From: Candidatus Levyibacteriota bacterium
Lineage (GTDB): Bacteria; Patescibacteriota; Microgenomatia; Levybacterales; GWA1-39-11
Reading direction: 5' to 3'
NCBI GenBank assembly: GCA_039738415.1
Contig: JBCLLY010000002.1
Coordinates: 9,792-73,791 of the forward strand
Length of the DNA stretch: 64,000 nt
Below, in pieces: positions 6,535 to 30,669 of this stretch. The notes beneath the pieces were generated by a model. The model did not search any database. It was given only the letters and a program-made list of their open reading frames with translations, and had not been told where the DNA came from. Made by a program: the position numbers and the translations under genes. Every line of letters begins with the position of its first letter. The first letter of the stretch is position 1.

Positions 6535-6626
6535 TATGGTTGATTAAAGTCTTAAGGATAGGCTATAATAGATGACTTTCCCTCCTTTCCCAAGGCTACG
6601 GAAGGGCAGGATCCCCAAAAATAAAT

Positions 6627-12540: not shown

Positions 12541-12577
12541 TATTGTTCTTATATTCTTACTGTGGTACGCTTATATT

Positions 12578-12982
12578 ATGAAAGGTTTTTTCCAGGAGAT
12601 TATCATAAATTCTGCTGCACTTTATATAACTTTAAGTATCTTTACAGGACTTGGTGTAAGCGGCGGATTTTGGGGAATTTTTACAGCTGCAGTTCTTATA
12701 ACCATAGGATTTAGAGTTTTAAAGCCGGTTATAAATATTATAACTTTACCTCTCAATGTAATTACATTTGGGCTTTTTCAGGCTTTAGTTGTTGCTTTTA
12801 TCGTATTTCTAATTACACTTATCTATCCCCAAATGCAGATTACTCCATTTCAATTTGTAGGCGCTCAATTTTTCGGAATAATAATTCAGCCATTTTTTGT
12901 AACTTTGTTTTTGTCTTACATAATAATTTCTGGTACAATATACCTCATTAACCGTAGCCTGTTCTGGCTTTTCGATTTATGA
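12578..12982 (+). CDS. small polytopic membrane protein (phage-holin-4/DUF360-like)
   Basis: 134 aa with four hydrophobic segments and an LKPVINIITLPLNVITFGLF pattern. Confidence 0.45.
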   Translation: MKGFFQEIIINSAALYITLSIFTGLGVSGGFWGIFTAAVLITIGFRVLKPVINIITLPLNVITFGLFQALVVAFIVFLITLIYPQMQITPFQFVGAQFFGIIIQPFFVTLFLSYIIISGTIYLINRSLFWLFDL

Positions 12983-13194
12983 GTATATTGACTTTTTTTC
13001 AGATTATAGTATCTCTGCTAATAGTAGCTACTGTAATTTTACAGTCACGTGGAAGTGATGCCGGAATGGCATTCGGAGGGGGAGGGGAGACATTTAGAAG
13101 TAAAAGGGGGCTTGAAAAAGTATTATTTTACGCGACAATTATTTTAGTCGTATTATTTGCTTCAAACTCAATTTTAGCACTTATTTCACGTTAA
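12979..13194 (+). CDS. secG: preprotein translocase subunit SecG
   Basis: 71 aa with two TM segments flanking a Gly-rich loop (GSDAGMAFGGGGETF). Confidence 0.8.
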   Translation: MSILTFFQIIVSLLIVATVILQSRGSDAGMAFGGGGETFRSKRGLEKVLFYATIILVVLFASNSILALISR

Positions 13195-13200
13195 AAAATT

Positions 13201-14550: not shown

Positions 14551-16912
14551 CTCTTTTAAAAATAACCAAATCTCTTGCATCAACCGTAACGGTAAATTCC
14601 TCGTTATAAAGTTTTAACTCTTCTATTAGGTTTGAATTGTTTTTAAAAAAAACTAAATAATCAGCGATATCTATACCATTTGGAATTATATAAATTCTCT
14701 CTCTTTGAACTAAATGCGCGGCAATATTATTTGTGGCAGTTACTATTGCTTCATTTGGTATTAAATTTATCGCTTTATAGACATCAGTTTTGTTTTTAAA
14801 TGTTTCAAAACCTGCAATATCTGAGTTTTTCAAACCGGGGAGTGGTGAAAATTTCCAAGTGGAGTAAAGTATAAAAAAGAGTAAATAGTAAAAAATAATA
14901 TTTAAAGCTAAATTCCTATTTTTAACTTTTGAAAGTATTTTTTTAACTCCATAAATTGATGATATGTATACAAAAGGAACTATTAAAGCTCCATAATGAT
15001 ACTGAATAGAACGTAAATTTGGATTACTGGAGAAAAGATTTATCATAAAATCCGGAAGAAGAAAAATAGCATAAAGTGGCGAAAACACTGAGAGAAAACC
15101 GACCGGAAGAAAGGTAATATAAATATAGTCAAGAGTCTGGGGACTTATTAACCGCGAAAAAAATGCACTGGGACGCAAAATTGGACTAAGTATAACTTCA
15201 ATAGTTGAATTACCTAAATAAGAGAGGTATTCCAGCGCAAAGTGATCTTCTCCCCGAAAGTTGGGAATTATGTAACTCATTAAAATTAAAAAAAACAGAA
15301 AAGAACCTATAAAAAGCAGTGAACCAAATATTTTTTCACCCTGCACGACAATACCTCGGCTTGCAGCCGCGAGGCGAACGGTAAGGTTGTGGGTACGGGG
15401 TTTACTCTTTATGAATAAAAAACCTCCAAAAATTGCGGAAACAAGATAAACGTTTTCTTTGGTTATAACTGCAAGAAATAGAAACAACGCAAATAACTTG
15501 TAACGTTTTTCTATCATAAAATAAAATGCACCTAGGAGAAAAGTAGTTGCAAGACTTACTGCGTGAAAGTCAAAAATATTTTGTTCCTGGACAAAATAAT
15601 TAAGGTAATATCCTATGCTAAATATTGCTGCAATTTTTTCCGAATTTAATATTTTCTTTGCTATTAGATATACAAATATTCCCCCCAAACCCAGCACGAC
15701 TGTTTGGGATATCAGTAATAAATTAACGCTTGGATAAATCGCGTACAATGGAGCAAATAGCAAAAGGATAAAGTCGGCATGCGCCGATAATCTGGATAAC
15801 TCGTTGGCACCGTCCGGATTTGAGAATATAAAGAAATTTCCATGTACGCTGTTCCATATTGTATTTTCCATATTTCCCAAATCAAACTTTCCGGAGTAGA
15901 AATTAAAGTGCCTTGAAATAGTAAAGAAAGTAAAATATGAAACGTATATAAAACTTGAAAGCAAAACTACAGTAAACCCGGAAAATTTAAAACGTAACCT
16001 TGCTAATTTTAGGAATCTATGACAAGCCCAAGCAAATGAAAGGAATATAATTTCACTTATTACTAAAAAAATACGGGTAAAAATAGCGACTGCGGCGGCG
16101 GCGTAGATAGGTAAAAAGGGGGCAAGCAGAAAGGCAGTTACAGCTTCTCTTACGCCAAGTCCCATCGGGGCGATGAAGGATAGGTACCCAATCAGCCAAC
16201 CTAAGACAAATATTGAAGAAAACAAAATTACCAGATTGGGACTGTTGGGAAATACTGCGGTCGCAAGGAAATAATTTGCAATTCCAAAAAATCCCCAAGC
16301 CAAAGAAGAGATTGAGATTACATTAAGATAGGAGAAAAAGTTTTTTGTTGGAAATAGTTTTTGGAAGTACTCAATTATCAACTTGCCTTTTTTAGGTAAA
16401 ACTTTAACCAATAGTATTACAATTACAAGCATAATTAAAAGAAACAGTATTATAAATTTAAAATATTTAAAATCTAAAATTTGAAGTATTGCGGGAGTAG
16501 AAATTAAAAGCGCTGATATTACCATTACAAACGCCTCGAGAATAATTGCTTTTACAAGTATTGTCTTTGAATAAGCTTTGCCGTTAAATTTGCCAGCTCT
16601 TGAAATAAAGGAAAAAATATTTCCGGGAACGTACCGTTTTGTCTCGGCAAGTGAGTATAAATAAACGCTTTCTGAAATACTTTTTTCTCTTTCTCCAAAT
16701 AATTCAAGAAGCTTTATCCACGAAAGAGACCTGATCAGGAAAAAACCGCTCATAAAAAAAACTCCTATGATAAGCAGGGTTGGATTTGCGGAAAAGATAT
16801 GCTTTTCAATTTCTTGCCAAGAAGTGAATAAAATTTTTCCTATGAAAAAAAATGAAATTAAAGTTAGGGGAATGCCCAATAGCATTTTTGCTATTTTTTT
16901 CATCCGGTTCAT
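14519..16912 (-). CDS. large polytopic membrane protein (flippase-like UPF0104 region fused to a DUF2079-like region)
   Basis: 797 aa with many TM segments and a GKFDLGNMENTIWNSVHGNFF motif. It is translationally coupled to the upstream GT2 gene. Confidence 0.5.
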   Translation of the reverse strand: MNRMKKIAKMLLGIPLTLISFFFIGKILFTSWQEIEKHIFSANPTLLIIGVFFMSGFFLIRSLSWIKLLELFGEREKSISESVYLYSLAETKRYVPGNIFSFISRAGKFNGKAYSKTILVKAIILEAFVMVISALLISTPAILQILDFKYFKFIILFLLIMLVIVILLVKVLPKKGKLIIEYFQKLFPTKNFFSYLNVISISSLAWGFFGIANYFLATAVFPNSPNLVILFSSIFVLGWLIGYLSFIAPMGLGVREAVTAFLLAPFLPIYAAAAVAIFTRIFLVISEIIFLSFAWACHRFLKLARLRFKFSGFTVVLLSSFIYVSYFTFFTISRHFNFYSGKFDLGNMENTIWNSVHGNFFIFSNPDGANELSRLSAHADFILLLFAPLYAIYPSVNLLLISQTVVLGLGGIFVYLIAKKILNSEKIAAIFSIGYYLNYFVQEQNIFDFHAVSLATTFLLGAFYFMIEKRYKLFALFLFLAVITKENVYLVSAIFGGFLFIKSKPRTHNLTVRLAAASRGIVVQGEKIFGSLLFIGSFLFFLILMSYIIPNFRGEDHFALEYLSYLGNSTIEVILSPILRPSAFFSRLISPQTLDYIYITFLPVGFLSVFSPLYAIFLLPDFMINLFSSNPNLRSIQYHYGALIVPFVYISSIYGVKKILSKVKNRNLALNIIFYYLLFFILYSTWKFSPLPGLKNSDIAGFETFKNKTDVYKAINLIPNEAIVTATNNIAAHLVQRERIYIIPNGIDIADYLVFFKNNSNLIEELKLYNEEFTVTVDARDLVIFKRVTSPDRDYRP

Positions 16913-17847
16913 TTGGAGCTTTCAGAGTCAAATTTAATAGGAAAATCAGAAATTTCCTTACGGTTAAAATTAACGATTAAATCAGCAACAAGCCCTGTTA
17001 ACATGACTTGAAATCCGGTAATTACAAAAAGCACACCAAATATTAAAAGTGGTCTTTGTCCTATTTGCGCACCAAAAAGCTTAATGACAAATAAATAGAA
17101 AAGTGCTGCCATTCCTATAAAAGCAATTGGAGCTCCTATTTTTGTAAAAAAATGAAGAGGGCGCTTAGTATATTTTGTAAGAAAATAAATCGTCATAAGA
17201 TCAGGGATGTCTGTTAAAATTTTTGTTGGCTTATATTTCGATACACCATAAAGTCTGGGGTGGTGTTTTATAGAGGCTTCGGAAACTTTAAATCCTAACT
17301 CTTTCGAAATAATAGGAATAAATCTGTGCATTCCGCCATATAGAAATAATTCTTTTGCAACATCATTTTTCATTACTTTTAATCCGCAGTTGAGATCATG
17401 AACCTTTACATTAAATAGAGATGACATTAATGAATTAAAAAACTTCGAAGAAATTACTTTTAGAATTGAGTCTCGTCTTTTTTCTCTCCAGCCGGAGACA
17501 AGATCGTAACCCTCATCAAGCTTGTTGGTAAGTTTTACTATTTCTGCAGGATCGTCTTGGAGATCTGCATCCATCATTACCACCAGTTTGCCTTTGGCTT
17601 TTTGAAAACCCAATGTTAATGCCGGTGACTTGCCCAAATTTCTTCTTAAGGAAATTAGTCTAATGTTGTCATTTTTTTTGCTTATTTCTTTTAAAATCTC
17701 TACTGATTTATCAGTAGACCCGTCGTCAATGAAAATTATCTCAAAAGAATCTTTTTCCAAAGCATTTTCTATTTGCTTTAACAGGACATGTAAGCTTTCT
17801 TCTTCATTTAAAACAGGTATTACCAGAGAGTATTTATAACTTATCAT
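16909..17847 (-). CDS. family 2 glycosyltransferase (polyprenyl-phosphate sugar transferase type)
   Basis: SLVIPVLNEEESL...IFIDDGSTDKS...MDADLQDDP, followed by two C-terminal TM helices. Confidence 0.85.
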   Translation of the reverse strand: MISYKYSLVIPVLNEEESLHVLLKQIENALEKDSFEIIFIDDGSTDKSVEILKEISKKNDNIRLISLRRNLGKSPALTLGFQKAKGKLVVMMDADLQDDPAEIVKLTNKLDEGYDLVSGWREKRRDSILKVISSKFFNSLMSSLFNVKVHDLNCGLKVMKNDVAKELFLYGGMHRFIPIISKELGFKVSEASIKHHPRLYGVSKYKPTKILTDIPDLMTIYFLTKYTKRPLHFFTKIGAPIAFIGMAALFYLFVIKLFGAQIGQRPLLIFGVLFVITGFQVMLTGLVADLIVNFNRKEISDFPIKFDSESSK

Positions 17848-17931
17848 ACGAATATTATAGCAAGAATTGAATTTATTTGTAGCTTAAGGATAAATTCTGT
17901 TAAAATAACAATACTCTCATTTGGGAGAAGG

Positions 17932-18004
17932 GCGCCTGTAGCTTAATGGATAGAGCACCTCGCTTCGGACGAGGCGGTTGGGGGTTCGACTCCCTTCAGG
18001 CGCG
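17932..18004 (+). tRNA. tRNA-Arg(UCG)
   Basis: Hand-folded cloverleaf: acceptor GCGCCTG/CAGGCGC, anticodon arm CCTCG CTTCGGA CGAGG, T loop TTCGACT. No encoded CCA. Confidence 0.85.
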
Positions 18005-19739: not shown

Positions 19740-20714
19740 ATGGATGAGAACGATCCTACGCTAACACAGGAAAGCACTCCGAATGCCACGTTGAATAACC
19801 TACCAGAAGAGAGGAAAACTTTTTTTAAAAAGAAAAAAGTAATGATAATTGCAGGAATCCTGCTGGCTCTTATTGTCGGGATTATTGCTTTTCTTCAATT
19901 GAGACAGAGTCCTGATACTGTTGCTAATCTCCCACCACCTGAACCTGAAAATGTGTTGCTCGCTACAGTAGGTGAGAAACAAATTTACTGGCGGGATGTT
20001 AACAATTTAGCCTTAGAGAATTATCTGGCGAGTGCCATTGATAACAACGTTCTGAAGTTGTATTTAAATATAGCAATTGAGCGAGCAATTCTTGATAAGG
20101 AGGCAGAGAGGCTTAAAATTAGTATAACTAGTGCTGAAATCGAATTGCGCAAGAAGTCAGCTGCAGCCAAGAAGACTGATTTACTCATTAAATACGACTT
20201 GCTAAAAGAGAAAGTGATGAAGGCTCAAATAAAAAATGTAGTCGCTTATACCGTTGGTTTTTGGATAGCCTCTTTTGATTACCCTCAATTACCCGAATAT
20301 ACCGTGCAAAGAGAGAAAGGTAAAATTGCACTTGCGGAAATCCAGCTTAAATTTATAGCGAATGAGAAAGCAGTTGACATCGCTAAGTACACGGCAGAAT
20401 CTTACCCAGAGCTAAGCGAGATTGTTGCGATAAATGGTCTAATTTATGTTAAAACAACAGATTTAAATCTATTGGAAAATCCCAGAACGTACACTCTTAA
20501 CCCCACAGATAAGGGTAAACCATATAATGATGATGAGGTGTTTGATGCTCTGTCGAAAATTAAAGCCGGGGAGGTTGTAAAAGTGGAGAGAAAAAATGGC
20601 TCCGGTGGAACTGTCATAAAGGCAGTATCAATAAATAACAGTGGATTTGCATCATATGAAGATTTTTTAACCGCACGTAAGAAAGAAATAGTTAAGATAA
20701 TAAGTAATTTATGA
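19740..20714 (+). CDS. membrane-anchored SurA/PpiD N-terminal-like chaperone-domain protein
   Basis: It has an N-terminal TM segment. VGEKQIYWRDVNNLALENYL...ILDKEAERLKISITSAEIE resembles the SurA N-terminal domain. No clear PPIase motif was seen. Confidence 0.4.
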   Translation: MDENDPTLTQESTPNATLNNLPEERKTFFKKKKVMIIAGILLALIVGIIAFLQLRQSPDTVANLPPPEPENVLLATVGEKQIYWRDVNNLALENYLASAIDNNVLKLYLNIAIERAILDKEAERLKISITSAEIELRKKSAAAKKTDLLIKYDLLKEKVMKAQIKNVVAYTVGFWIASFDYPQLPEYTVQREKGKIALAEIQLKFIANEKAVDIAKYTAESYPELSEIVAINGLIYVKTTDLNLLENPRTYTLNPTDKGKPYNDDEVFDALSKIKAGEVVKVERKNGSGGTVIKAVSINNSGFASYEDFLTARKKEIVKIISNL

Positions 20715-22243
20715 AAAGTGTTTTAATATTTGTATCATTCTTATTCACGGTCTTATCATTTCTAATTTTTCCAGGCGATGCGAATGCACAATGTGCAACT
20801 ATGCAGGGAACTATTGGAGGGTCTAATTTCCCTTCAGGGGGTAAAGTGGTAATAAAATGCGATGGGGACGATCCAGTCGGAGATTCAAATTGTGGTGGAA
20901 ACAGTGAGGCACTCGTACCAGGAGAAACGTATAATTTCCAGAATTGCAGTTGTCGTCTTGGAACTGGAAGATGTATGCAGGTGGTTTCAGTACCGACCGG
21001 ATGTACTTACAGTCTAACAGGTCAGATTTGTGGTACCAATGGTCAGACTAATTATCCTGATATAAGCGTTTCATGCCCTGCGCCTAGTACTCCATGTCCG
21101 AAGGGAAGAGGATATTGTGGCGATCCAAATGGCATTGGTGCCACGGATTGCACTTATGGAGCCGAGCCTGGTAGTTGGTTAAGTTCGCAGGGTTATACGG
21201 ATTGGTGTGCTGCTAATACAGGTGGTAGTACGAGTTATTGTTTCAATACTTGTAAACCTGCTCCAACTGCTACACCCACGCCTACGCCTACGCTTACACC
21301 CACAGCAACAGCCACCCCCACAAGTACACCCACATCATCACCCACCCCCACAAGTACTCCCGGGGCAACAGCCACTCCTACGAGGACACCTACGCCTACA
21401 AGTACGCCTGGTCCTACAAGTACGCCTGGTCCTACAAGCACGCCTAGACCTGTTTGTGGTGATCCATGTGCTATCAAAACTGAGTGTGATGGTGCAGCAT
21501 TAGGTTGTACAGAATGTCTTCTAAGTAGTGGGGGAGGGAAAACTTGCCAACCACTGGCTACGGGTACGCCTGTGCCGACAGCTACACCTCCTCCCGCACC
21601 TACGCCTACGCCTGACTTTAAAGAAGCTATGTGTAAGTGTGACCTAATGAATGTAGGGCAAATAACGATGGGGGAGCCTATTAAAATTGAGGCTTTCGCA
21701 AAAGTAGTAGGCGATGACGTCAAAAAAGCATATGTTAGAAATATGAATTTTAAGATTTACGAAGGCAACCCTTCTGGCGGAAGAAGGGTGCCTTTTATAG
21801 ATGAAGCCACACGGCCAGTAGATGTAGTAGGTAATTCGTCGGCAACCTTGGTGCGCTATAGAGCAGAGTGGACAGTTAGCCCTAATCAGATAAAAATAGG
21901 GGAAGAATATAGAATAGTCGCAACTCCGGATTGTGCTCCTAGAGTTGCGGCAATTCAACGTCAAAATCAGAGCGTAGTGCTTGCCGCAAGAGACGAAAAT
22001 ATTGGATTTTTCGAACAAATCGCAAACTTCTTTGCGGGACTTTTTGGGCAGGGTAGTGAGCCGGAAGATCAGGGTGTTCAGACAGCAGAGGAAGATCAGG
22101 GCCCACTTTCATTTATAACAAATTTCTTCAGACCTCAAACGGAAGTTAGGCGTCAGATTCAGATGCAAACATTTATTCCATCTCAAATGGAGAAAGAGGC
22201 TTGTAATATTGTGAAATTCAAATTTGACTTCATAGCTCAGTAA
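20711..22243 (+). CDS. secreted Cys-rich protein with a long Pro/Thr-rich linker
   Basis: It has a signal peptide, many Cys residues, and a PTATPTPTPTLTPTATATPTSTPTSSPTPTSTPG... low-complexity block (about 21250-21450 and 21555-21615). Confidence 0.6.
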   Translation: MKSVLIFVSFLFTVLSFLIFPGDANAQCATMQGTIGGSNFPSGGKVVIKCDGDDPVGDSNCGGNSEALVPGETYNFQNCSCRLGTGRCMQVVSVPTGCTYSLTGQICGTNGQTNYPDISVSCPAPSTPCPKGRGYCGDPNGIGATDCTYGAEPGSWLSSQGYTDWCAANTGGSTSYCFNTCKPAPTATPTPTPTLTPTATATPTSTPTSSPTPTSTPGATATPTRTPTPTSTPGPTSTPGPTSTPRPVCGDPCAIKTECDGAALGCTECLLSSGGGKTCQPLATGTPVPTATPPPAPTPTPDFKEAMCKCDLMNVGQITMGEPIKIEAFAKVVGDDVKKAYVRNMNFKIYEGNPSGGRRVPFIDEATRPVDVVGNSSATLVRYRAEWTVSPNQIKIGEEYRIVATPDCAPRVAAIQRQNQSVVLAARDENIGFFEQIANFFAGLFGQGSEPEDQGVQTAEEDQGPLSFITNFFRPQTEVRRQIQMQTFIPSQMEKEACNIVKFKFDFIAQ

Positions 22244-22352: not shown

Positions 22353-22428
22353 GGTGGTGTTAGCTCAATTTGGTTAGAGCATCAGATTGTGGATCTGAAG
22401 GCTGCCGGTTCAAGTCCGGTACACCACC
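22353..22428 (+). tRNA. tRNA-His(GUG) with encoded G-1
   Basis: G-1 precedes acceptor GTGGTGT/ACACCAC and discriminator C73. Anticodon loop TTGTGGA, T loop TTCAAGT. Confidence 0.85.
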
Positions 22429-22459
22429 CACCGTAATTTATTACACGTATTTAAGCTTA

Positions 22460-23557
22460 TTAAACAAATTCTTTAATACTATCGCATATATATGCAACGT
22501 CTTGTTTTGTCATCCATGGATGACAAGGAAGAGTTAACGTTTCCCTAATCATTTTCCTCGCCTCAGTTAGTTCATAAATCTTATATTTCATATATCTCAT
22601 GAAGGGTTGATCTGGTATTAGCATGGGATAATGAATTCCAGTTTCTATTCCTTTTCGCTTAAGATGATTCTTTAATTGATTACGCTTTTTGGCCCTAATT
22701 ACAAATAGATGAAAATTTGCAAATGTCATTTTATTGTAATCTAAAAAATTTATATACTTAAAACCTGAAAGGTTATTCATGTATTCTCTAGCTAAATTTC
22801 TACGTTTTTCGTTATCAGAGTCCAAATATTTTAATTTTATTAATAAAATACCCGCCTGAATTTCATCCAATCGGCTATTTAAACCATACTCTGTATGCAA
22901 ATTTTTCCTTTTTTGTCCATAATCCCTAAGTTTATAAGCCAAAGTTGCAAGTTTAGCGTTATTTGTAACTATTGCCCCACCATCCCCAATTGCACCTAAA
23001 TTTTTTGTAGGATAAAAACTAAAGCAACCTACATCTCCAAATTTACCCAACTTTTTGTTTATAAAGATAGATCCGTGGCCCTGCGCTGCATCTTCAATTA
23101 AAAATATTTTGTTGACTTTGCAAATTTTTTTAAGTTTAATCAAATCACATGATATTCCATAAAGATCAACGGGAATGATAGCTTTTGTGTGTTTATTTAT
23201 TTTTTTTTCAAGTATATCTAAATTAATTTGTCCATTTTTATCTACGTCAATAAATACCGGTTTAGCAGACACTGCTAAAATTGCGAGAGTAGTGGCAACC
23301 GCTGAGAGAGGAGTTGTAATCACCTCATCGTTTTCACCAATACCTAACACCATTAGGGATATTTGTAGAGCTTCAAGTCCATTTGCCACACCAATGCAAT
23401 ATTTAACATTCAAGTAACTTGCGAATTCTCTTTCAAACTTTTTAACTTCGTTGCCCAAAATATAATAGCCAGATGAGAGTATCCTATCAAAAGCAGTTCT
23501 ATATTCTTCGCCTCTATACTGTACCTCTTTTGTAAAATCGTTTAATTTGATATTCAT
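22460..23557 (-). CDS. DegT/DnrJ/EryC1/StrS-family sugar aminotransferase (PLP-dependent)
   Basis: 365 aa. The N-terminal pattern YYILGNEVKKFEREFASYL and the general family layout fit this family. Confidence 0.85.
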   Translation of the reverse strand: MNIKLNDFTKEVQYRGEEYRTAFDRILSSGYYILGNEVKKFEREFASYLNVKYCIGVANGLEALQISLMVLGIGENDEVITTPLSAVATTLAILAVSAKPVFIDVDKNGQINLDILEKKINKHTKAIIPVDLYGISCDLIKLKKICKVNKIFLIEDAAQGHGSIFINKKLGKFGDVGCFSFYPTKNLGAIGDGGAIVTNNAKLATLAYKLRDYGQKRKNLHTEYGLNSRLDEIQAGILLIKLKYLDSDNEKRRNLAREYMNNLSGFKYINFLDYNKMTFANFHLFVIRAKKRNQLKNHLKRKGIETGIHYPMLIPDQPFMRYMKYKIYELTEARKMIRETLTLPCHPWMTKQDVAYICDSIKEFV

Positions 23558-23949
23558 TTTGTATTTGCTATTTTTAAAAAATCATTGTAATCCCTAATGT
23601 AATCATTCTCATCATAAAATTTTGAAGCAAAGACTAGAAGAATTGTATTTTTATTCATGTCATGCATTTCGTGCCAGATCATTTTATCTAAAAATAAGCC
23701 CACTTCTGACTTATCTAAAACTACTACCTCTTTTTTATTACCGTCATCTATCACCATTTTAACTTTACCTTGAATACAAAAAATTACCTGTTTGTTTTGA
23801 TAGTGAGCATGTTTGCCTCGATATAAATCTGCGTTGGGTTGAGTAATGTAGTAGACCCGTTTCGTTGCAAAGGGAATATGCTTATTATTTTCTACAAAAT
23901 GCAAGAAGCAATCGTCATTTATTTTTGGAATTTTTATCAATTTTATCAT
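23554..23949 (-). CDS. WxcM/FdtA-like sugar 3,4-ketoisomerase (cupin)
   Basis: 131 aa. FATKRVYYI...GKHAHYQNKQVIFCIQGKV. It is coupled to the aminotransferase gene. Confidence 0.75.
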   Translation of the reverse strand: MIKLIKIPKINDDCFLHFVENNKHIPFATKRVYYITQPNADLYRGKHAHYQNKQVIFCIQGKVKMVIDDGNKKEVVVLDKSEVGLFLDKMIWHEMHDMNKNTILLVFASKFYDENDYIRDYNDFLKIANTK

Positions 23950-23980
23950 TGTTTCTTTTAAGATGATGATTAATCAGGAT

Positions 23981-25051
23981 TCATTTTGATGTCCTCGTGC
24001 CAACATCTGTTCGTTGTCGATATTTGCCTAATGGTTGAATTGATGTTACTTGTTGATCTGGAGTCATTGCCAAAAACGTCTCGTATTGTCTTTTATTCTC
24101 ATCCATCATTGCGAAATAATCTGCTCTATTTGTTGTAGAATGCCAGAGATGAATTATTGGATAATTTGTAGAAACTGATTGATTATCAAAATACATATCT
24201 CCGTCTCTTGCTCGTTTATAATCATATAGGGCTTGAGCTCTTGCCCAAAAACCCAAATCTTCGTATCCCCATCCTACATAGCTTGGCGAACCACCCATTC
24301 TGTCATACTCAGCTGATCTAGTTAAATAAGATGCCTTAGCTCTCCCTCCTGGTCTATATTTCAAAAGAGTTTCACTTGGTTGTACTACTCTAAAGGAGTC
24401 ACCAAAATATGTAAAAGTCCCCTCATTTATTCCCCAAATTTCCTCAGGATTTAATCCCAATAGACTTTCTACCTGTAATTCTGGTGGCAAAGCAAGAACT
24501 AATGGAGATAACTCATCAGGGCTAAAATATTTTCTGTCAACGATACCCACCTGATGCGTATCTAAACGAACGCCTGTGTTAATTGTTTCAAGTGCGGCTA
24601 AAACTTTTGTCCAATCTACTCTGCCCTGTGTGATTGCTTCAGTTAAAGGTTTTGATAAATTTACGGAAGAAAAAAATGGAAAAATAACTGGTGCATTTAA
24701 CTCTTTCATTTTTTCCAATGATCTTTCAACCATTTCGGGAGGTAAAATAAAATCAGCTTGATGAATATAAGTAAACTCAGAGTTCGTTGCTCTAAGAAAT
24801 CCTTCATTTTGAACTATCGCTGGACTATATATACCATTTTGAAGAGGTAAAAAAATATATTCGTCGCAATAGTTTTTTGCATAATTTGCCTGAGTTGGTG
24901 AATTGCTGGATTCTACTAAAATCGTACGAATATTAGGATAAGTTTGGGTATTCACACACTCTTCAACTACAAAATGTAACAAGGTTTCTCTTTCCGGCTG
25001 AGTTTCTGAATAACCGAAAGGAACTATTATATTAACATCTTCTTTGCTCAT
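23981..25051 (-). CDS. GT-A-fold glycosyltransferase-like protein (GT2 / beta-1,4-galactosyltransferase-like C-terminal motif)
   Basis: NIIVPFGY start, an HQADFILP acidic motif, VGWGYEDLGFWARA, and a late IIHLWH motif. Confidence 0.5.
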   Translation of the reverse strand: MSKEDVNIIVPFGYSETQPERETLLHFVVEECVNTQTYPNIRTILVESSNSPTQANYAKNYCDEYIFLPLQNGIYSPAIVQNEGFLRATNSEFTYIHQADFILPPEMVERSLEKMKELNAPVIFPFFSSVNLSKPLTEAITQGRVDWTKVLAALETINTGVRLDTHQVGIVDRKYFSPDELSPLVLALPPELQVESLLGLNPEEIWGINEGTFTYFGDSFRVVQPSETLLKYRPGGRAKASYLTRSAEYDRMGGSPSYVGWGYEDLGFWARAQALYDYKRARDGDMYFDNQSVSTNYPIIHLWHSTTNRADYFAMMDENKRQYETFLAMTPDQQVTSIQPLGKYRQRTDVGTRTSK

Positions 25052-25656
25052 TTTTCTTCTTCCTCCATTTTTGTATAAATTAGATTTCTAATATAATCAG
25101 CCTTACTTATACCACTCTCTCTTGCAATGTCATTTAGAAAATTATCCATATTTTCGCTTATCATTAAATTGAATCTTTTATCCAGGCCTTTCTTTTCAAC
25201 AAAACTTAGGAAGTTTTTAATCGTTTTCCTTAAACTATCTTTTTCTGATGATGAGTATTGTTTGATTCTGAGCAATCTATTATATGAAGCCAGGTATAAT
25301 CCCCTATATTCTTCTTGGATTAAAAAAAGCACAGGGATTCCTCGTTGTAATGCCATCGATAGATAATATCCACCACCAGTGGTAGGTTGTGTTCCTTCAA
25401 AAACAACACAATCGCTTTTTACCATATCTTTTAATAACTCTTTTGCTCTTTTTTCACTGCTTTTTACACTTCTCCTTAATATCTCTCTTGGTTTGATAAG
25501 GGATTGACGTGAATTAACCATGTGACCTTCCGATTCAAGAATCGAAATAATATCTATGTACGAAGACCGCAAATTTTTAGACGCAGCAATGCTTGCTAAG
25601 AAAAATATTTTCATACATTGAATATTGTTGTATAATACATATGTTTTATATGTCAA
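25048..25656 (-). CDS. nucleoside 2-deoxyribosyltransferase-like domain fused to a C-terminal ribbon-helix-helix domain
   Basis: MKIFFLASIAAS...DCVVFEGTQPTTGGGYYLSMALQRGIPVLFL shows the NDT-like pattern. The C-terminus KRFNLMISENMDNFLNDIARESGISKADYIRNLI is CopG/RHH-like. The likely start is M15 at 25614. Confidence 0.5.
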   Translation of the reverse strand: MTYKTYVLYNNIQCMKIFFLASIAASKNLRSSYIDIISILESEGHMVNSRQSLIKPREILRRSVKSSEKRAKELLKDMVKSDCVVFEGTQPTTGGGYYLSMALQRGIPVLFLIQEEYRGLYLASYNRLLRIKQYSSSEKDSLRKTIKNFLSFVEKKGLDKRFNLMISENMDNFLNDIARESGISKADYIRNLIYTKMEEEEK

Positions 25657-25824
25657 ATCGACTGAAATTTGTCAAAAGTATTATATCACTTTTTTGTTTA
25701 GATTTATTAAAAAGCATCAAAAATGCAACTTTAGCAGATTTTGAGCGAGTTTTAATAACTAGAGACGAATTAATTTTGTTATGTTTAACGAATCGCTTTT
25801 TATCAAATCTCGAAAGGAGAAGGA

Positions 25825-26508
25825 ATGATTATAGATAGGTTTGATGCCAAACCAGTTCAGTTACTTCTAGCACGGCATAGAGAGCATCAAGAGTCATATT
25901 TGCAAGATTTTCGGGGAATCCCTTTGATTATATTTCCGGATGTATTTAACCCTGCATACACAAAAGTGTCAAGTTATTTAGCTGATAACTTAGTTATTCA
26001 ACCCGGGTCAACAGTATTAGAAATGTTCAGCGGAAGTGGAGCATTATCCTTTATAGCTGCTGGGAAAGCAAGAGAAGTAACAGGGGTAGATATCTCACCG
26101 AATTCTGTTGACTGCGCAAAGTTAAATGCGGCTAAACTAGGTTTATCTGATAGAACTAAATTTAGAGTAGCTAATTTATGGGAGGGTGTTAGAGAAGGTG
26201 AGAAGTTTGACGTGATAATTGCTAATCCTCCATTACTACCGGCAATACCAGAAAGTTGGCTGGAAATGACCATTGCCGATAGTCCAGACATGCTAACTAC
26301 AATTAAATTTATCCAGGGCTGTTCCTCTCATCTAACTGATTCGGGTCGTGTTTTTATGGCTTTTTCCAATGCTTGTGGGGTATATTTTGCAAATCCTCTT
26401 GGATTAATTAACAAAACAGCAGATGAATCAGGGCTAATAATGCAAGTTAAATCCGAATGGGATGTTGGATATGAAATATATAGAATACTTGAATTTACAA
26501 AAAAATAA
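25825..26508 (+). CDS. class I SAM-dependent methyltransferase (HemK/RsmC-like small-domain type)
   Basis: VLEMFSGSGALS is SAM motif I, and DVIIANPPLLP is an NPPY-like motif. Confidence 0.7.
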   Translation: MIIDRFDAKPVQLLLARHREHQESYLQDFRGIPLIIFPDVFNPAYTKVSSYLADNLVIQPGSTVLEMFSGSGALSFIAAGKAREVTGVDISPNSVDCAKLNAAKLGLSDRTKFRVANLWEGVREGEKFDVIIANPPLLPAIPESWLEMTIADSPDMLTTIKFIQGCSSHLTDSGRVFMAFSNACGVYFANPLGLINKTADESGLIMQVKSEWDVGYEIYRILEFTKK

Positions 26509-26510
26509 AT

Positions 26511-27665
26511 ATGGCAAAAATAATAGCTACAGCTGAAAATTATGCATTTGGGCCTGCAAGCAAATTGGTAACTGTTTGCAAACGTCTTATAGACGAAGGG
26601 CATGAGGTTACGTTTATTGGTGAGGGTACAGCTTATCAACTTGCAAGCAAGCTTAATTTTCAAAAAATTTACAAATTTGATACTGATTCTAAGGAATTTA
26701 TGAATTGGGGTACAGAAATTTTTAAGAGTGCTGATTCCCTACTTTCGAGTGTTGATCGTTCGAGTGTAATCCTTGCTAAAAAGCTTAACTTACCTGTTAT
26801 TTGGCTTGATATGTTATTCTGGTGGTGGGATACGATACCAGATTACCTTTTTGATATTAGTTTATATATACAACAAAACTCTATTAAAAACGAACTTAAC
26901 ATAGAAAGATATAAAAATAAAATAAAGAACATGAAGATAGTCGGCCCAATTATTGACACTTCTTACAAAAATTTACCAATAAAGAAACAGCTTCTTATCG
27001 CATTTGGTGGAACGGAAGCCGCCGGCTGGTACAAAATTGGGAAAGATAGTAATTATCCATATACAATCTCAAAAATGATTATTGAAAAGGTTAATACTAG
27101 TAGATACGACAAAGTTATTTTTGCAGGAAATGAGAAAATAATGGTAGATCTGAATAAAAAATATGGAAATACAAAATTTCAGTTTAAAATACTGTCTCAT
27201 GATGATTGGCTTAGGGAAATGGCATCATCACAGGATTTATTAATTCATCCTGGACTCGAAACCGTATTAGAGATAATCTCGTATGAGAGACCAGCATTTT
27301 TCTTGCCCCCGGACAATAGTAGTGCTTATGTAGAATTGGACGAATTTAGACGTAAAGGTATTGCAACGAAAGAGAATTCTGTTCACTTCGCTGATTATTT
27401 TCCGTGCAAGAATTTTTTAGGTCGTGATTTGCGAGTAATTATGGAAGAATTCATGGGCGAAATGCGAGAATTTGAAGCTTCTAGGGAAATTTTGGATAAT
27501 TGCGCAAAAAGAATTAATTTATTTATCGATATGTCGCAAGAAAGAAAAAATACTCAGATACTAAAACAGAGGGAATATATGCAGGATTTTGGTAAGAATG
27601 GGTTAGAACAAACCATGAAAATAATAAACGAATTTTTAGAAAATATAAATAATAAACATGTCTGA
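26511..27665 (+). CDS. GT-B-fold glycosyltransferase-like protein (GT1/GT28-like)
   Basis: The N-terminus AENYAFGPASKLVTVCKRLIDEGHEVTFIG and the C-terminal LIHPGLETVLEIISYERPAFFLPP resemble the GT1 donor-binding motif. Confidence 0.5.
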   Translation: MAKIIATAENYAFGPASKLVTVCKRLIDEGHEVTFIGEGTAYQLASKLNFQKIYKFDTDSKEFMNWGTEIFKSADSLLSSVDRSSVILAKKLNLPVIWLDMLFWWWDTIPDYLFDISLYIQQNSIKNELNIERYKNKIKNMKIVGPIIDTSYKNLPIKKQLLIAFGGTEAAGWYKIGKDSNYPYTISKMIIEKVNTSRYDKVIFAGNEKIMVDLNKKYGNTKFQFKILSHDDWLREMASSQDLLIHPGLETVLEIISYERPAFFLPPDNSSAYVELDEFRRKGIATKENSVHFADYFPCKNFLGRDLRVIMEEFMGEMREFEASREILDNCAKRINLFIDMSQERKNTQILKQREYMQDFGKNGLEQTMKIINEFLENINNKHV

Positions 27666-28740
27666 ATTCGTAGAGAGAGTTTTAAATAGATCGCTAGGAA
27701 ATCAGGACACAAGTAGTAATTGCTCTAGGCTTTCAAGTGGTATTAGTAACGAAACATATAGGGTTACTAGGCCCATCGATGGACTAACAACTGACTTAGC
27801 AGTAACAATTATTAGAGACCCATCATCTTGGTGGAAAATAGAACAGGAGTATTCTCTTCGAGAGATATTACATGAAGATCAAGAGGTGTCTATTCCTAAG
27901 CTATATAACGCTGGTTTTGATCATTTAGATGATCAAAAATTTGCATTTATCATTAGAGAATTTTTGCCAGGTCAAGACCTTGACGCTATTTTTACTTTAC
28001 TTATGACATCTTCTAGTTCTTCAGAAAGAGATGTAAAATCATTAGCTACCGATTTAGGTAGGCGTTTGGCTACGCTTCATCGCCACCAGTCATCTGCATT
28101 TGGCCTTGTAGGAAGAGCATCTGAAGTTATTTATCCGCAATGGGGAGACTATGTTTTGGGAGAGATTGAAAATAAATCTCGGTTACTCGCTCAACTTCCC
28201 TCTGACCAACAGGTTGGATCCGTGAAAGTCGCAGAAATTTTGAGTATTCTTCCAGCATTAGATGGATTAATCGGATCAAAGCAATGGTCATTGTTTGAAC
28301 AAAACTCTCCATCGTTAAGCCATGGAGATGCTCATTTTCATAATTTTATTGCTAATTCGAACGAAGATGGAATATGGAAAATAAACGGTATGATTGATAC
28401 AGATGAAGCGCTAGGTAGTGATCCAGAAATAGATATAGCTTTTATCGAAAATTGGCTACACTTTGCGTCCTATGGTCAAAGGTTTTACCAACACAAAGGA
28501 GAATTTTTAACGGGTTATGAGTCCGTACGAGAAATTTCAGATCACTATTCAAGTCGTAGATTAATATATCATGTGCTAAGATCCCTATCTTACCTGCAGG
28601 TCGTATCAACTCTTGATCAAAATGAATTTGCAAGTATGAATTCGCAAAATTTAAATTACATTTCAAAACATTTGGGCATATTAAGATCATTAGCAAGAGG
28701 TAATGGCTTAGAAGATCTTGACATATTATCATTAGCATAA
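27658..28740 (+). CDS. aminoglycoside-phosphotransferase/choline-kinase-family small-molecule kinase
   Basis: It carries a Brenner-type motif LSHGDAHFHNFI and a downstream IDTDE motif. It overlaps the upstream gene by 8 nt. Confidence 0.75.
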   Translation: MSEFVERVLNRSLGNQDTSSNCSRLSSGISNETYRVTRPIDGLTTDLAVTIIRDPSSWWKIEQEYSLREILHEDQEVSIPKLYNAGFDHLDDQKFAFIIREFLPGQDLDAIFTLLMTSSSSSERDVKSLATDLGRRLATLHRHQSSAFGLVGRASEVIYPQWGDYVLGEIENKSRLLAQLPSDQQVGSVKVAEILSILPALDGLIGSKQWSLFEQNSPSLSHGDAHFHNFIANSNEDGIWKINGMIDTDEALGSDPEIDIAFIENWLHFASYGQRFYQHKGEFLTGYESVREISDHYSSRRLIYHVLRSLSYLQVVSTLDQNEFASMNSQNLNYISKHLGILRSLARGNGLEDLDILSLA

Positions 28741-28746
28741 TCTAAT

Positions 28747-29172
28747 ATGAAAGTATTTATCGCAGGTATAATGCAGGGAAATAAAAAAGAATATGGAATT
28801 CATTCTCAGGGTTATCGAAGTGAAATTTCGAAACATTTACAACAGATTATTCTTGATATAAAAATAATTGATCCTGACAAAACAGATCCGGAAAGACTCT
28901 CCTATGATCAAAATGAAGAAGCGAATATGTTTTTTAAATACTGTTCTATGGCTGGAAAAGTTGACCTAATGATTTCCTATATTCCTGAAGCAAGTATGGG
29001 CTCAGCAATAGAAATGTGGATAGCGTATAAAGCTAATGTCCCGATAGTCAGCATTTCACCTCTCACGCACAATTGGGTTATTAAGTTACTTTCTAAAAAA
29101 ATATACTCCGACTTGGATAGTTTTAAAAATAAATTTAATTTCCAGATACTTAAGGAGTTAGATCTTATCTAA
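28747..29172 (+). CDS. nucleoside 2-deoxyribosyltransferase-like protein
   Basis: 141 aa. MKVFIAGIMQG...DLMISYIPEASMGSAIEMWIAYKANVPIV. Confidence 0.5.
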   Translation: MKVFIAGIMQGNKKEYGIHSQGYRSEISKHLQQIILDIKIIDPDKTDPERLSYDQNEEANMFFKYCSMAGKVDLMISYIPEASMGSAIEMWIAYKANVPIVSISPLTHNWVIKLLSKKIYSDLDSFKNKFNFQILKELDLI

Positions 29173-29763
29173 ATGCTTTGTTGAAACCAGTTCAATTAGA
29201 GTATATTTATAGGTTTTGGGGTCAAAATCGATAATAGTTATAGAGCACTCAAGAATACTAGAATCTTTTAAATTTGCGAAATTAGGAAACTTAATATTAA
29301 GCTTATCTTCATCAAAAATGTTACATAAAAAATCAGTAATAATTCCACCGTGCGTAACTAGTATTGTGTGTACAAATTCATCGTCTTGCGATGAAATAAA
29401 ACTACTTAATCTTTCTCCAGCTTTTCTTGAAGAATCTCCAATTTGTGGAATCCAATCTCTTTCAATTGAAGCTTTTTTCCACATTACAAGAAAATTCTCA
29501 AATTTTTGATTTGGATCATCACCCCAATTAACTCTTTCCTTTAATAAAGGTTTTATAGCAAATTCAAGTTTTAATGCGTTTGCGATAACTTGAGCAGTTT
29601 GTTTAGATCTCAAAGCTGGACTGGTAATTATTTTTTGAATCGAAAGATTTTTGAAATAATAACCCGTAGATTTTGCTTGAGCTAAACCTTTTTCTGAAAG
29701 AGAAGGATCACCAATTTTTTTGACCGTTTCTCCATGGCGAACTAAATAAAAACGTTTTGTCAT
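29158..29763 (-). CDS. histidine phosphatase family protein (phosphoglycerate-mutase-like)
   Basis: FYLVRHGET carries the RHG motif, and a downstream TILVTHGGII motif is present. Confidence 0.8.
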   Translation of the reverse strand: MTKRFYLVRHGETVKKIGDPSLSEKGLAQAKSTGYYFKNLSIQKIITSPALRSKQTAQVIANALKLEFAIKPLLKERVNWGDDPNQKFENFLVMWKKASIERDWIPQIGDSSRKAGERLSSFISSQDDEFVHTILVTHGGIITDFLCNIFDEDKLNIKFPNFANLKDSSILECSITIIDFDPKTYKYTLIELVSTKHLDKI

Positions 29764-30196
29764 TGTCAGTTATTATAATATAGAATTTGTTGAAAACAAA
29801 CTATACGCAAAATGTAACAGAACTCTTCGTAATAAAATTTAAGGGAAATTCAAGAGAAATTAAAAACGAAAGCGCAATCTAAAATTGTTTATTATCTACG
29901 CATAAATCAGGCTACTACCTTATTCCGAGTATGGTAACATTAGGACTCCCGGAAGGTTTTAAATATACTATCCCCCCAGTGGATAAATAAAGAGTGCAAT
30001 CATTAAATAGTTTACAACGAAGCAAAAAATGTTCTATAAAACTCCCTTTCCTCCAAGGATATTGCGCTGAAGTAAATTCGAACGTCGGTCACCAGCCGAC
30101 CCCAAATATCATTAGGAATAACTATATTTTTTGAACTATTTATAGAAATTTCACCCCCGACATAATCAACTTTATCGATTGTGTTATAATTTCTAT

Positions 30197-30448
30197 ATGA
30201 ACCAATCAATACTAAAATATGATGTTATTTTTGAAGAACAGGAAGTTGGTGGGTATACGGCTACTGTACCATCATTGCCGGGATGCATAAGTGAAGGCGA
30301 TACATTCGAAGAAGCAAAAATAAATATTGCTGAGGCAATAACTGCATACTTAGAAAGTCTTGCTATAGACGGTGAAGAAATTCCCAATCCGGACATGAAT
30401 ATATTTATCGGTAAAATTACTGTTGAGAAACCCATTATTGCTATATAG
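30197..30448 (+). CDS. hicB: HicB-family antitoxin
   Basis: YDVIFEEQEVGGYTATVPSLPGCISEGDTFEEAKINIAEAI. TGTTATAAT (30182-30190) sits 6 nt before the ATG. Confidence 0.8.
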   Translation: MNQSILKYDVIFEEQEVGGYTATVPSLPGCISEGDTFEEAKINIAEAITAYLESLAIDGEEIPNPDMNIFIGKITVEKPIIAI

Positions 30449-30456
30449 CAGATTTT

Positions 30457-30669
30457 ATGCCCTCGACAACCTCAAAGAAACTTCTTAAATTTCTCAAGAA
30501 AAGAGGATTTTACCTTCATCACCAAGTAGGAAGCCATATGGTTTTAAAATCTTCTACTGACGTAGCGAGAAGAGTTACACTTCCAATGCACAATAAAGAC
30601 ATAAAACCCGGAACATTATCTTCGGTTCTTAAACAAGCGGGTATTGATAAGATAGATTTTTTTAAATAG
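30457..30669 (+). CDS. hicA: HicA-family mRNA interferase toxin
   Basis: 70 aa. KKLLKFLKKRGFYLHHQVGSHMVLK. Confidence 0.85.
   Translation: MPSTTSKKLLKFLKKRGFYLHHQVGSHMVLKSSTDVARRVTLPMHNKDIKPGTLSSVLKQAGIDKIDFFK

Follow-up and report, generated by a model that had tools for sequence, protein, structure and literature searches.

Biosynthesis of blasticidin S, mildiomycin, arginomycin and gougerotin depends on clusters in which a CMP N-glycosidase (BlsM/MilB) is paired with a cytosylglucuronic acid (CGA) synthase (BlsD/MilC), followed by BlsE and the aminotransferase BlsH. The CGA synthase family also has a purine-using member, the guanylglucuronic acid synthase MihI/ApmI of the miharamycin and amipurimycin pathways (PMC11188666), and in the case of SepE/SepF of septacidin biosynthesis the title of a reference cited in PMC9978623 indicates an N6-glycosylated adenine. 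The pentostatin, coformycin and adechlorin clusters recruit homologues of hisG and of priA/hisA (PMC13055916; PMC12648386). Here we analysed a 64,000-nucleotide stretch of a Candidatus Levyibacteriota genome (contig JBCLLY010000002.1, assembly GCA_039738415.1, positions 9,792 to 73,791 of the forward strand), which is referred to below as the window, and in particular an 8.3-kb island at window positions 22353-30669 that begins at a tRNA-His gene. We consider the chances slightly better than even that the genes of this island form a compact biosynthetic cluster, acquired horizontally, the product of which is a small glycosylated nucleobase of the hexopyranosyl-nucleoside type. A first-pass annotation, made from the sequence alone, had noted a resemblance to the enzyme logic of hexopyranosyl-nucleoside pathways here, and this view is supported by a CGA-synthase-like glycosyltransferase of the GT-B fold and by a protein with the nucleoside 2'-deoxyribosyltransferase (NDT) fold that carries the catalytic motif of MilB and DNPH1.

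The island resembles the front end of blasticidin-, mildiomycin- and miharamycin-type pathways but is not a member of those clusters, because its GT-B protein failed the equivalog test and because BlsE, BlsF and the peptide ligases are missing. As in the blasticidin type, an NDT-fold protein with an S-x-G-x-x-x-E motif is encoded in one operon with a homologous GT-B enzyme, a DegT-family aminotransferase and a methyltransferase are present, and the genes are compact and tightly coupled. In an arginomycin/blasticidin-like reference cluster (locus L111), a small NDT gene is followed by the glycosyltransferase and then by DegT, which is a matching adjacency. In contrast to the blasticidin type, the GT-B protein is of a subfamily of its own (22% identity; 49 versus 300 bits), the NDT-fold protein is not detectably BlsM-like in sequence, and the 11 island open reading frames (ORFs) include neither BlsE (the radical-S-adenosylmethionine (SAM) CGA decarboxylase) nor BlsF nor an ATP-grasp/peptide ligase, all of which are found in L111; a major facilitator superfamily exporter is also absent from the island. 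The island further differs in having a second glycosyltransferase of the GT-A fold, a kinase of the aminoglycoside phosphotransferase (APH) type, a histidine phosphatase, an N-methyltransferase with an NPPL motif and a predicted repressor in which a dead NDT domain is joined to a ribbon-helix-helix (RHH) domain, and in having a Patescibacterium as its host.

Compared by description with MihI, the island would share a logic in which the base is released from a nucleoside monophosphate (NMP) and re-glycosylated with a pyranose, which works on purines too (PMC11188666). However, MihI is a bifunctional single protein in a pathway that depends on a polyketide synthase (PKS), whereas the island has neither PKS nor heptose genes. 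Like the pentostatin, coformycin and adechlorin clusters, three sister islands (L004, L008 and L011) recruit genes of the histidine branch, but the island in the window has no his genes, no SAICAR-synthetase-like PenC/CofA and no PenB-type reductase; moreover, pentostatin-type pathways keep the ribose, whereas the island has a CGA-synthase-like transferase.

Glycosyltransferase and NDT-fold protein of the rightward operon

All eleven ORFs of the island and the tRNA-His gene were recovered where the first-pass annotation had placed them, and its assignment of a tightly coupled operon was borne out: the gene for the methyltransferase is separated by 2 bp from that for the GT-B protein, which overlaps the kinase gene by 8 bp, and the gene for the small NDT-fold protein follows the kinase gene after 6 bp. 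The GT-B glycosyltransferase, a putative nucleobase N-glycosyltransferase (26511-27665, + strand), is the signature gene of the core. Its best match is TIGR04467, (hydroxymethyl)cytosylglucuronate synthase (BlsD/MilC), with E 4.7e-13 and 49 bits, and TIGR04467 was also the best NCBIfam match for all 26 aligned members of the GT-B family (best E 4.1e-20) and for all 10 sampled representatives of the wider superfamily (top score 102 bits). With tblastn, the GT-B protein found a PGAP-annotated CGA synthase (E 7e-10) in an arginomycin/blasticidin-like cluster on a Streptomyces plasmid, and alignment of the GT-B family profile with the CGA synthase of the arginomycin/blasticidin-like cluster by hhalign gave a probability of 98.7% and E 2.9e-16 over 269 columns. 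The motifs N[YF]x[FW]GxxxKL, PGL[ET]TxLE and LPPxNxSQ, N- and C-terminal in position, are common to the family and CGA synthase, to which the GT-B protein is 22% identical. A superfamily profile search of 1.84 billion cluster representatives returned 1,203 relatives at E <= 1e-3, including 188 at E <= 1e-30. By sequence, then, the GT-B protein is a homologue of CGA synthase, not an orthologue, and belongs to a large uncharacterised sister family of ~1,200 cluster representatives.

Within the superfamily, there are two fusions of the transferase with DegT, one with a SAM methyltransferase and one with a radical-SAM/SPASM domain; these fusions imply that DegT, methyltransferase and radical-SAM enzymes share a pathway with the transferase, in the way that BlsD, BlsE and BlsH work together in making blasticidin. 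A second Patescibacterial GT-B clade (L019 and L023-L027; 35-40% identity) was found without NDT, methyltransferase, APH or phosphatase partners, and its GT-B genes sometimes adjoin genes for a short-chain dehydrogenase/reductase (SDR) and DegT. The superfamily evidently serves several pathways.

The last gene of the operon (28747-29172, + strand) encodes a 141-aa protein, which AlphaFold2 (AF2) modelled with a pLDDT of 90.3. A Foldseek search with the model retrieved NDTs, the MilB CMP N-glycosidase and DNPH1 at probability 1.0 and TM 0.6-0.7, the structural matches being 6evs, 7m5h, 4jem, 4ohr and DNPH1. Residues Ser83, Gly85 and Glu89, which form the S-x-G-x-x-x-E motif, are invariant among 44 sequences of the family and have the same spacing as Ser97, Gly99 and Glu103 of MilB, where the serine and the glycine bind the 5'-phosphate and the glutamate is the nucleophile (PMC4081090). 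The motif also aligns with SPGVMVE of the BlsM-like protein encoded beside the reference CGA synthase. On the model, the 141-aa protein is placed among the NDT-type NMP N-glycosidases at the level of fold and motif, and it is predicted to be a nucleoside-5'-monophosphate N-glycosidase that releases the free base.

A sequence relationship between the 141-aa family and the BlsM-like reference is not claimed, as hhalign aligned only the catalytic motif and the match was not significant (E 0.05). The 141-aa protein itself did not match Pfam PF05014 or PF15891, although some of its homologues carry one or the other domain; because the BlsM-like reference is itself below the Pfam NDT threshold (27.2 versus 28.8 bits), a sub-threshold Pfam score is normal for the NDT fold and is not counter-evidence. 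Single-sequence searches of the PDB gave nothing useful for the kinase, the GT-B protein or the 141-aa protein. More distant relatives of the latter (38-45% identity), encoded on many metagenomic contigs, have an N-terminal ubiquitin-like domain of the ThiS/Ub-Mut7C type fused to them.

In the window, the 141-aa NDT gene and the convergent phosphatase gene overlap by 15 bp. A 3' overlap of 13-15 bp between these two genes occurs in at least six islands (the window, L002, L008, L011, L012 and L013), the proteins of which are only 45-63% identical, and may mean that the operon and the phosphatase gene are coupled, through transcriptional interference or in an antisense manner.

Candidate repressor and operator

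The second NDT-like protein, here called NDT-RHH, is encoded by the first gene of a leftward operon (25048-25614, - strand) that is divergent from the operon described above. The ORF can be extended to a TTG codon at 25656 (202 aa), but the true start is probably the ATG at 25614 (188 aa), as in the orthologues and in the annotation of GenBank contig JBCLLX010000001.1 (assembly GCA_039731645.1), which carries an identical copy of the island. A profile of the orthologues related the N-terminal domain to DNPH1/Rcl (E 8.8e-8), with a weak match to ThsA as well. In all eight NDT-RHH orthologues, the nucleophilic glutamate of the DNPH1 'GYELG' motif is replaced by Tyr, Phe or Leu, and in the HMMER alignment the position of the catalytic Asp69 of rat Rcl is occupied by Leu in the window protein. 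With its nucleophile lost, the N-terminal domain should bind a ligand without cleaving it. The C-terminal 47 residues show a strand-helix-helix pattern, for which the top PDB matches were weak (CopG, E 0.26; Arc, E 1.3); RepB-RCR_reg of Pfam scored 0.0023, below its cutoff, and the NCBIfam matches to RelB and RepA were weak, but these matches are likewise to proteins of the RHH type and in that respect consistent with CopG and Arc. Thus, of the proposal that the island holds two NDT-like proteins, the fold stands for both, but their equivalence does not, one being a predicted enzyme and the other a predicted dead sensor-repressor.

Upstream of each NDT-RHH gene we found a palindrome of 17-18 bp with the consensus GTTATRYA-W1-2-TRYATAAC. 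The copy in the window, GTTGTATAATACATATG, is imperfect and lies in the divergent promoter region at 25627-25643, 13 bp upstream of the repressor start codon; it is unique in the window, and 0.00 matches would be expected by chance. In 1.25 Mb of sequence, the palindrome was restricted to island promoter regions of 12 loci, a test that is partly circular, as the pattern was derived from the same promoters. In two loci (L009 and L010), however, the operon is split, and an extra palindrome stands upstream of the separated APH-methyltransferase unit; because these extra copies had not been used to define the pattern, they are good evidence for a dedicated regulon. The NDT-RHH protein is most likely, as judged from these sequences, a ligand-sensing repressor with the palindrome as its candidate operator. 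It is predicted to bind the 17-bp palindrome and to sense a nucleotide-like precursor or product in its degenerate active-site pocket.

The use of this fold for binding nucleotide-derived ligands would be shared with DNPH1/Rcl and with SLOG/NDT sensors such as the SLOG domain of ThsA and ThsI of type VIII Thoeris. Unlike in those sensors, the nucleophile is lost in NDT-RHH, an RHH domain is fused to it, the operon is of a biosynthetic type and there is no TIR or Sir2 partner. We found no description in the literature of the dead-NDT/RHH architecture or of its operator. The 180-bp leader gave no match in Rfam, and a riboswitch reading was dropped.

Tailoring genes, proposed route and rival readings

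The remaining three genes of the leftward operon encode enzymes of sugar chemistry. The GT-A-fold glycosyltransferase (GT2/GT7-like; 23981-25051, - strand), a core gene, is below the Pfam cutoffs, and its AF2 model (pLDDT 91.1) retrieved RmlT, TarP, TarS, K4CP and GalNAc-T in Foldseek at E ~1e-7; the family profile aligns to beta4GalT7 at the HxxD(F/L)LP and GWGxED motifs. Orthologues with 29-62% identity occur in ten further loci (L001, L004, L008, L009, L013, L016-L018, L020 and L021). The FdtA/WxcM-C-like cupin, a putative sugar 3,4-ketoisomerase (23554-23949, - strand; PF05523, 2e-42), is unique to this island among the loci examined, and the DegT/PseC-like pyridoxal phosphate (PLP)-dependent sugar aminotransferase encoded by the last gene (22460-23557, - strand; PF01041, E 2.6e-101) has its best NCBIfam matches, all below the equivalog level, in PseC, LegC and WecE-type families. 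The DegT protein is 38-44% identical to the DegT proteins of sister islands, and both it and the cupin belong to a variable module.

These genes bear on the view that the island serves an ordinary surface glycan (O-antigen, S-layer or teichoic), in which a dTDP-3-amino-3,6-dideoxyhexose made by DegT and FdtA would be transferred to a polymer of the envelope by the two glycosyltransferases. DegT, FdtA and a GT2-like GT-A protein are typical of glycan clusters, the structural neighbours of the GT-A protein are teichoic-acid and polysaccharide transferases, and a GT2 and DUF2079 pair lies elsewhere in the window (14519-17847). However, the island encodes no flippase, polymerase, chain-length regulator, priming transferase or any membrane protein, and RmlA and RmlB were not found in the window ORFs scanned, namely the island ORFs and 20 of the larger ORFs elsewhere, the latter being of the housekeeping kind; UDP-glucose dehydrogenase was absent from the same set, and the earlier statement that the window has no RmlA/RmlB-type genes agrees with this. 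Furthermore, DegT and FdtA are variable rather than core; the core consists of the NDT-fold protein, the CGA-synthase-like transferase, the kinase, the phosphatase and the N-methyltransferase, with a dedicated nucleotide-fold repressor in addition, and the position of the cluster is not conserved as core genome. We therefore regard a surface glycan as very unlikely, and the first-pass suggestion that the product could equally be such a glycan did not hold up, given the lack of membrane machinery and partners that are a kinase, a phosphatase, a methyltransferase and NDT-fold proteins. Neither of the outcomes that had been named as speaking against a nucleoside pathway, ordinary glycan assignments with sub-threshold NDT matches or syntenic conservation as core genome, was what we observed.

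The rightward operon begins with a HemK/MTQ2-like SAM methyltransferase (25825-26508, + strand), another core gene, in which the motif IIANPPLLP is accompanied by matches to the Pfam families MTS and Methyltransf_31 and by sub-cutoff matches to PRK14968 and HemK2 in NCBIfam; it is predicted to be of the amino- or amide-N-methylating type, and orthologues occur in all full islands, including those of actinomycetes. The core kinase of the APH/fructosamine-kinase family (27658-28740, + strand), presumably acting on a small molecule, matches PF01636 (4.6e-17) and PF03881 (1.9e-10), both above the Pfam cutoffs, has the motifs HGDAHFHN (HGDxxxxN) and DxD, and likewise has orthologues in the sister islands. 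The convergent branch 1 histidine phosphatase (29158-29763, - strand; PF00300, 1e-23) has a single solved relative at E <= 1e-5, the putative CobC 3hjg (alpha-ribazole-5'-phosphate phosphatase; 2.9e-7). Beyond it lie hicB (30179-30448, + strand; PF15919, 2.8e-13) and hicA (30457-30669, + strand; PF07927, 2.6e-18), adjacent genes with HicB_lk_antitox and HicA_toxin domains that form a type II toxin-antitoxin pair; hicBA is a neighbour of the island and is absent from the other island loci. Overall, profiles together with AF2 and Foldseek confirmed the domain calls that had been made for DegT, the FdtA-like and GT-A-like proteins, the NPPL methyltransferase, the GT-B-like protein, the HGDxxxxN kinase, the phosphatase and hicBA.

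If the island makes a glycosylated nucleobase, the route could run as follows. The 141-aa enzyme, by its fold and S-x-G-x-x-x-E motif, would hydrolyse an NMP to the free base and ribose-5-phosphate, and the GT-B protein, by homology, would form a new N-glycosidic bond between the base and an NDP-hexose or NDP-hexuronate, giving a pyranosyl N-glycoside. The sugar would then be tailored by the variable module, in this island through keto-isomerisation by the FdtA-like protein and amination by DegT, and the GT-A protein would attach a second sugar. The NPPL methyltransferase would methylate an exocyclic amino or amide nitrogen, while the APH-type kinase and the CobC-like phosphatase would phosphorylate and dephosphorylate the product or an intermediate, which could provide self-protection, activation or a nucleotide-like end product.

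The same chemistry would serve another purpose in a nucleotide-centred anti-phage conflict system, which the first-pass annotation had also brought up. Its enzymes would produce or alter a nucleotide analogue inside the cell, such as a chain terminator or decoy, or else would act on a nucleotide pool by depleting or marking it on infection; the kinase would turn a nucleoside analogue into a nucleotide, and the repressor would hold the system silent until a nucleotide signal arises. A kinase and a phosphatase with no exporter fit an intracellular nucleotide-like product, and defence or mobile genes are frequent neighbours: hicBA in the window, restriction-modification, Fic, HNH and GIY-YIG genes in L002 and L003, and PDDEXK nucleases in L004. 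In Streptomyces locus L001, DUF1156 and SNF2 genes adjoin the island, a pair also found in DISARM-type defence systems. In addition, the methyltransferase matches the PADLOC model mad2 at 1e-25 and the kinase weakly matches MAD6. NDT-fold 'CMP hydrolase' domains are effectors of type VIII Thoeris (bioRxiv 10.64898/2025.12.03.692087), so that effectors of this fold do exist. On the other hand, PADLOC was blank for eight of the ten proteins, the matches of DegT (DndA, SspA) reflect the generic PLP fold, and the mad2 match is confined to the generic methyltransferase domain (profile positions 275-398 of 492). We found no TIR, CBASS or STAND sensor and no homologue in 50,697 phage records, and a tailoring set of seven to eleven enzymes with modular carbamoylation, hydroxylation and amination is a typical feature of secondary metabolism, whereas no defence system is known to have such a set. 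PADLOC thus lent the earlier proposal no support, and we judge a conflict system to be unlikely, though less so than a surface glycan. Membership in MADS was rejected separately: only the methyltransferase domain of mad2 is matched, the kinase reaches MAD6 with E 1e-5 and 24 versus 460 bits, and the other components are absent.

Several points weigh against the assignment of the island to a glycosylated-nucleobase metabolite. The GT-B protein misses the TIGR04467 equivalog cutoff (49 versus 300 bits) and is far from the characterised enzymes, so that its donor and acceptor could differ from those of CGA synthase; the 141-aa protein is related to BlsM/MilB by fold and motif, with no significant sequence match; and the best matches of DegT are ordinary NDP-sugar aminotransferases. 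The RHH assignment draws on weak sequence scores and on the operator, and is accordingly tentative. There is no exporter gene in the island, and neither sugar-nucleotide precursor genes nor a dehydratase were found in the scanned ORFs of the window; FdtA-type isomerases would normally need the product of a 4,6-dehydratase. No product or enzyme activity is on record for any member of the gene set. Finally, Patescibacteria generally lack nucleotide synthesis, and nucleotides would be costly for them to spend on a secondary metabolite.

Distribution, sister islands and acquisition

To place the island among genomes, 185,579 species-representative genomes were scanned with the GT-B protein, which yielded only 20 loci. 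Besides Patescibacteria, these represent Actinomycetota, namely five Streptomyces, Catenulispora pinistramenti and one Kribbella, and about half of the 20 loci have the full partner set. Close homologues of the GT-B protein form 58 clusters, nearly all from Microgenomates-type Patescibacteria, with one from Streptomyces. The six-gene core, consisting of the methyltransferase, the GT-B protein, the small NDT-fold protein, the GT-A protein, the APH kinase and the histidine phosphatase, recurs in about a dozen Patescibacterial islands and is also collinear in Streptomyces, Catenulispora and Kribbella, while the divergent NDT-RHH gene was found in the Patescibacterial islands only. Around the core there are variable modules: FdtA with DegT in the window, and elsewhere a 4,6-dehydratase-like SDR with DegT, a NodU-like carbamoyltransferase, or HisG, either alone or together with a HisI/HisA-like fusion and an ITPase-like NTPase. 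In actinomycetes, the gene order is carbamoyltransferase, SGNH/AlgX-like, methyltransferase, GT-B, NDT, a 203-aa unknown protein, GT-A, APH, PhyH dioxygenase and a second APH; the extra genes (NodU-like O-carbamoyltransferase, PhyH dioxygenase, SGNH-like protein and second kinase) encode typical tailoring enzymes, and the actinomycete clusters contain neither a nonribosomal peptide synthetase nor an ATP-grasp ligase.

In L004, L008 and L011, hisG stands directly upstream of the methyltransferase gene, and in L004 there are also genes for an ITPase-like NTPase and for a fusion of HisI with a HisA-like barrel. The equivalog cutoff is exceeded by HisG in two of these islands (L004 and L008) and by HisI in one locus. 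With genuine HisG and HisI present in some sister islands, the aglycone may derive from the purine or the histidine branch in at least some variants. The Roizmanbacteria version of the island (L002/L003) is preceded immediately upstream (5419-7570, - strand) by genes for an ATP-grasp protein of 444 aa, a 94-aa C-terminal fragment of a D-Ala-D-Ala ligase and a C39-type peptidase; they could be an extension toward a peptidyl nucleoside or a separate bacteriocin-like unit.

A neighbour-joining tree of the GT-B proteins rooted with CGA synthase placed the actinomycete sequences in one clade (100/100) that is sister to all Patescibacterial sequences. These reciprocal clades indicate that the gene set common to both phyla is old, and they are compatible with transfer in either direction. 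The result bears on a further reading, in which the genes would take up, salvage or detoxify an exogenous nucleoside-type compound, for example from an actinomycete host or neighbour, for resistance or for scavenging of the base or sugar. APH kinases, glycosyltransferases and methyltransferases are classic antibiotic-inactivating enzymes, Patescibacteria rely on scavenged nucleotides, the same gene set is found in actinomycetes, which are hosts of some lineages of the candidate phyla radiation (CPR), and a CobC-like phosphatase with an NDT-fold hydrolase would fit nucleotide salvage. However, the split in the tree is an old one between phyla and not a recent acquisition from a host, the island has no transporter, resistance takes one or two genes, whereas here six core genes are co-conserved with amino-sugar, carbamoyl and HisG/HisI modules, and the actinomycete versions look producer-like, with a carbamoyltransferase, a dioxygenase and two kinases. 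We consider salvage or detoxification quite improbable, between the conflict system and the surface glycan in this respect.

Returning to the preferred reading of a biosynthetic cluster, we tentatively propose, with less than even confidence, that the six-gene core stands for a family of nucleobase metabolites not yet described, which would be glycosylated, N-methylated and phospho-cycled and might derive from the purine or histidine branch. This family would be made by both Patescibacteria and actinomycetes; we propose further that it is governed in the islands by a new type of dead-NDT/RHH regulator and serves as a chemical weapon, antiviral or host-manipulating agent in episymbionts. We found no description of the six-gene set in the literature. 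Patescibacteria (CPR) combine tiny genomes with a presumed dependence on their hosts for nucleotides and with a reputation for little secondary metabolism. For such cells, an 8-kb pathway that is conserved, has its own regulation and appears to use up nucleotides for a decorated nucleobase glycoside would be a notable investment, and it might offer a handle on how they interact with hosts, competitors or phages. Because actinomycetes that can be cultured have the orthologous cluster (Streptomyces sp. NPDC050636, S.PB5 and NPDC047081, Catenulispora pinistramenti NL8 and Kribbella sp. NPDC058245), the product is experimentally reachable, and the sister family of ~1,200 GT-B cluster representatives could be mined for nucleoside natural products. 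A dead NDT fold with an RHH domain and a candidate operator would be a new sensor-repressor design and possibly a nucleotide-responsive switch.

The accessory status ascribed to the island is supported by its atypical composition, its rarity, its changing flanks and an island-free relative. The GC content of the 8.3-kb island is 0.334, compared with 0.371 for the rest of the window, and is lower than in every other window of the same size; its tetranucleotide deviation of 0.162 is the maximum of the window, where 0.09-0.13 is typical. The impression that the region is richer in AT than its flanks is thus borne out, although the effect is modest. The flanking genes differ in every island genome. 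In L009 and L010, the gene order is rearranged amid TraG-like, TniB and integrase genes, which suggests that these islands are carried on an integrative or conjugative element in a Patescibacterium. The regions concerned (L009 1-6200 and L010 9787-13009) encode TraG-like/DUF87 conjugation ATPases, an M23 peptidase, TniB, a tyrosine integrase and a second histidine phosphatase.

A metagenomic relative (L033) has the backbone tRNA-Gly(tcc), tRNA-Arg(tct), rhomboid and tRNA-His(gtg) without the island: the gap between the rhomboid gene and tRNA-His is 1.3 kb with a PaaX-like gene there, compared with 8.35 kb, including the island and hicBA, in the window. This absence is taken from one distant relative, in which the rhomboid is 53% identical and tRNA-His is inverted; synteny is lost in the other 79 of 80 metagenomic rhomboid relatives, so that L033 alone is informative, and no signature island gene was found near the rhomboid gene in any of the 80. 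In L033, a split and perhaps frameshifted gene for an APH-type phosphotransferase (12116-13043, - strand) directly follows tRNA-His; it does not match the island kinase at E <= 1e-8 and at least 50% coverage. The neighbourhood of tRNA-His may be a recurrent site for accessory genes. In the window, tRNA-His(gtg) (22354-22429, + strand; found by ARAGORN, with an Rfam score of 68 bits) forms the left border of the island. Integration targeted to this tRNA is not claimed, as neither an integrase nor an att-like, tRNA-derived direct repeat was found at the borders. A phage origin was also rejected, with no tblastn match among the 50,697 phage records; the only plasmid match was a true CGA synthase.

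The window as a whole has a GC content of 0.366 and is rich in housekeeping and tRNA genes. Among the proteins encoded outside the island are enolase, UvrC, Obg, trigger factor, PheS and a Mur ligase, and the 16 tRNA genes are scattered over the 64 kb as singles or pairs. Just to the left of the island (20711-22243, + strand) lies the gene for a secreted-looking protein of 510 aa, which has no Pfam match and is overlapped by spurious antisense ORFs; its long Pro/Thr-rich linker (PTPTPT...) gives rise to a local GC spike of 0.483 at 21-22 kb. The second-strongest tetranucleotide deviation of the window (0.155) was observed at ~9000-18000, where a transglutaminase-like protein, a UvrC-like GIY-YIG protein, an SBP_bac_5 solute-binding protein and the DUF2079 membrane protein and GT2 pair are encoded, and this stretch may be another acquired or envelope-related segment.

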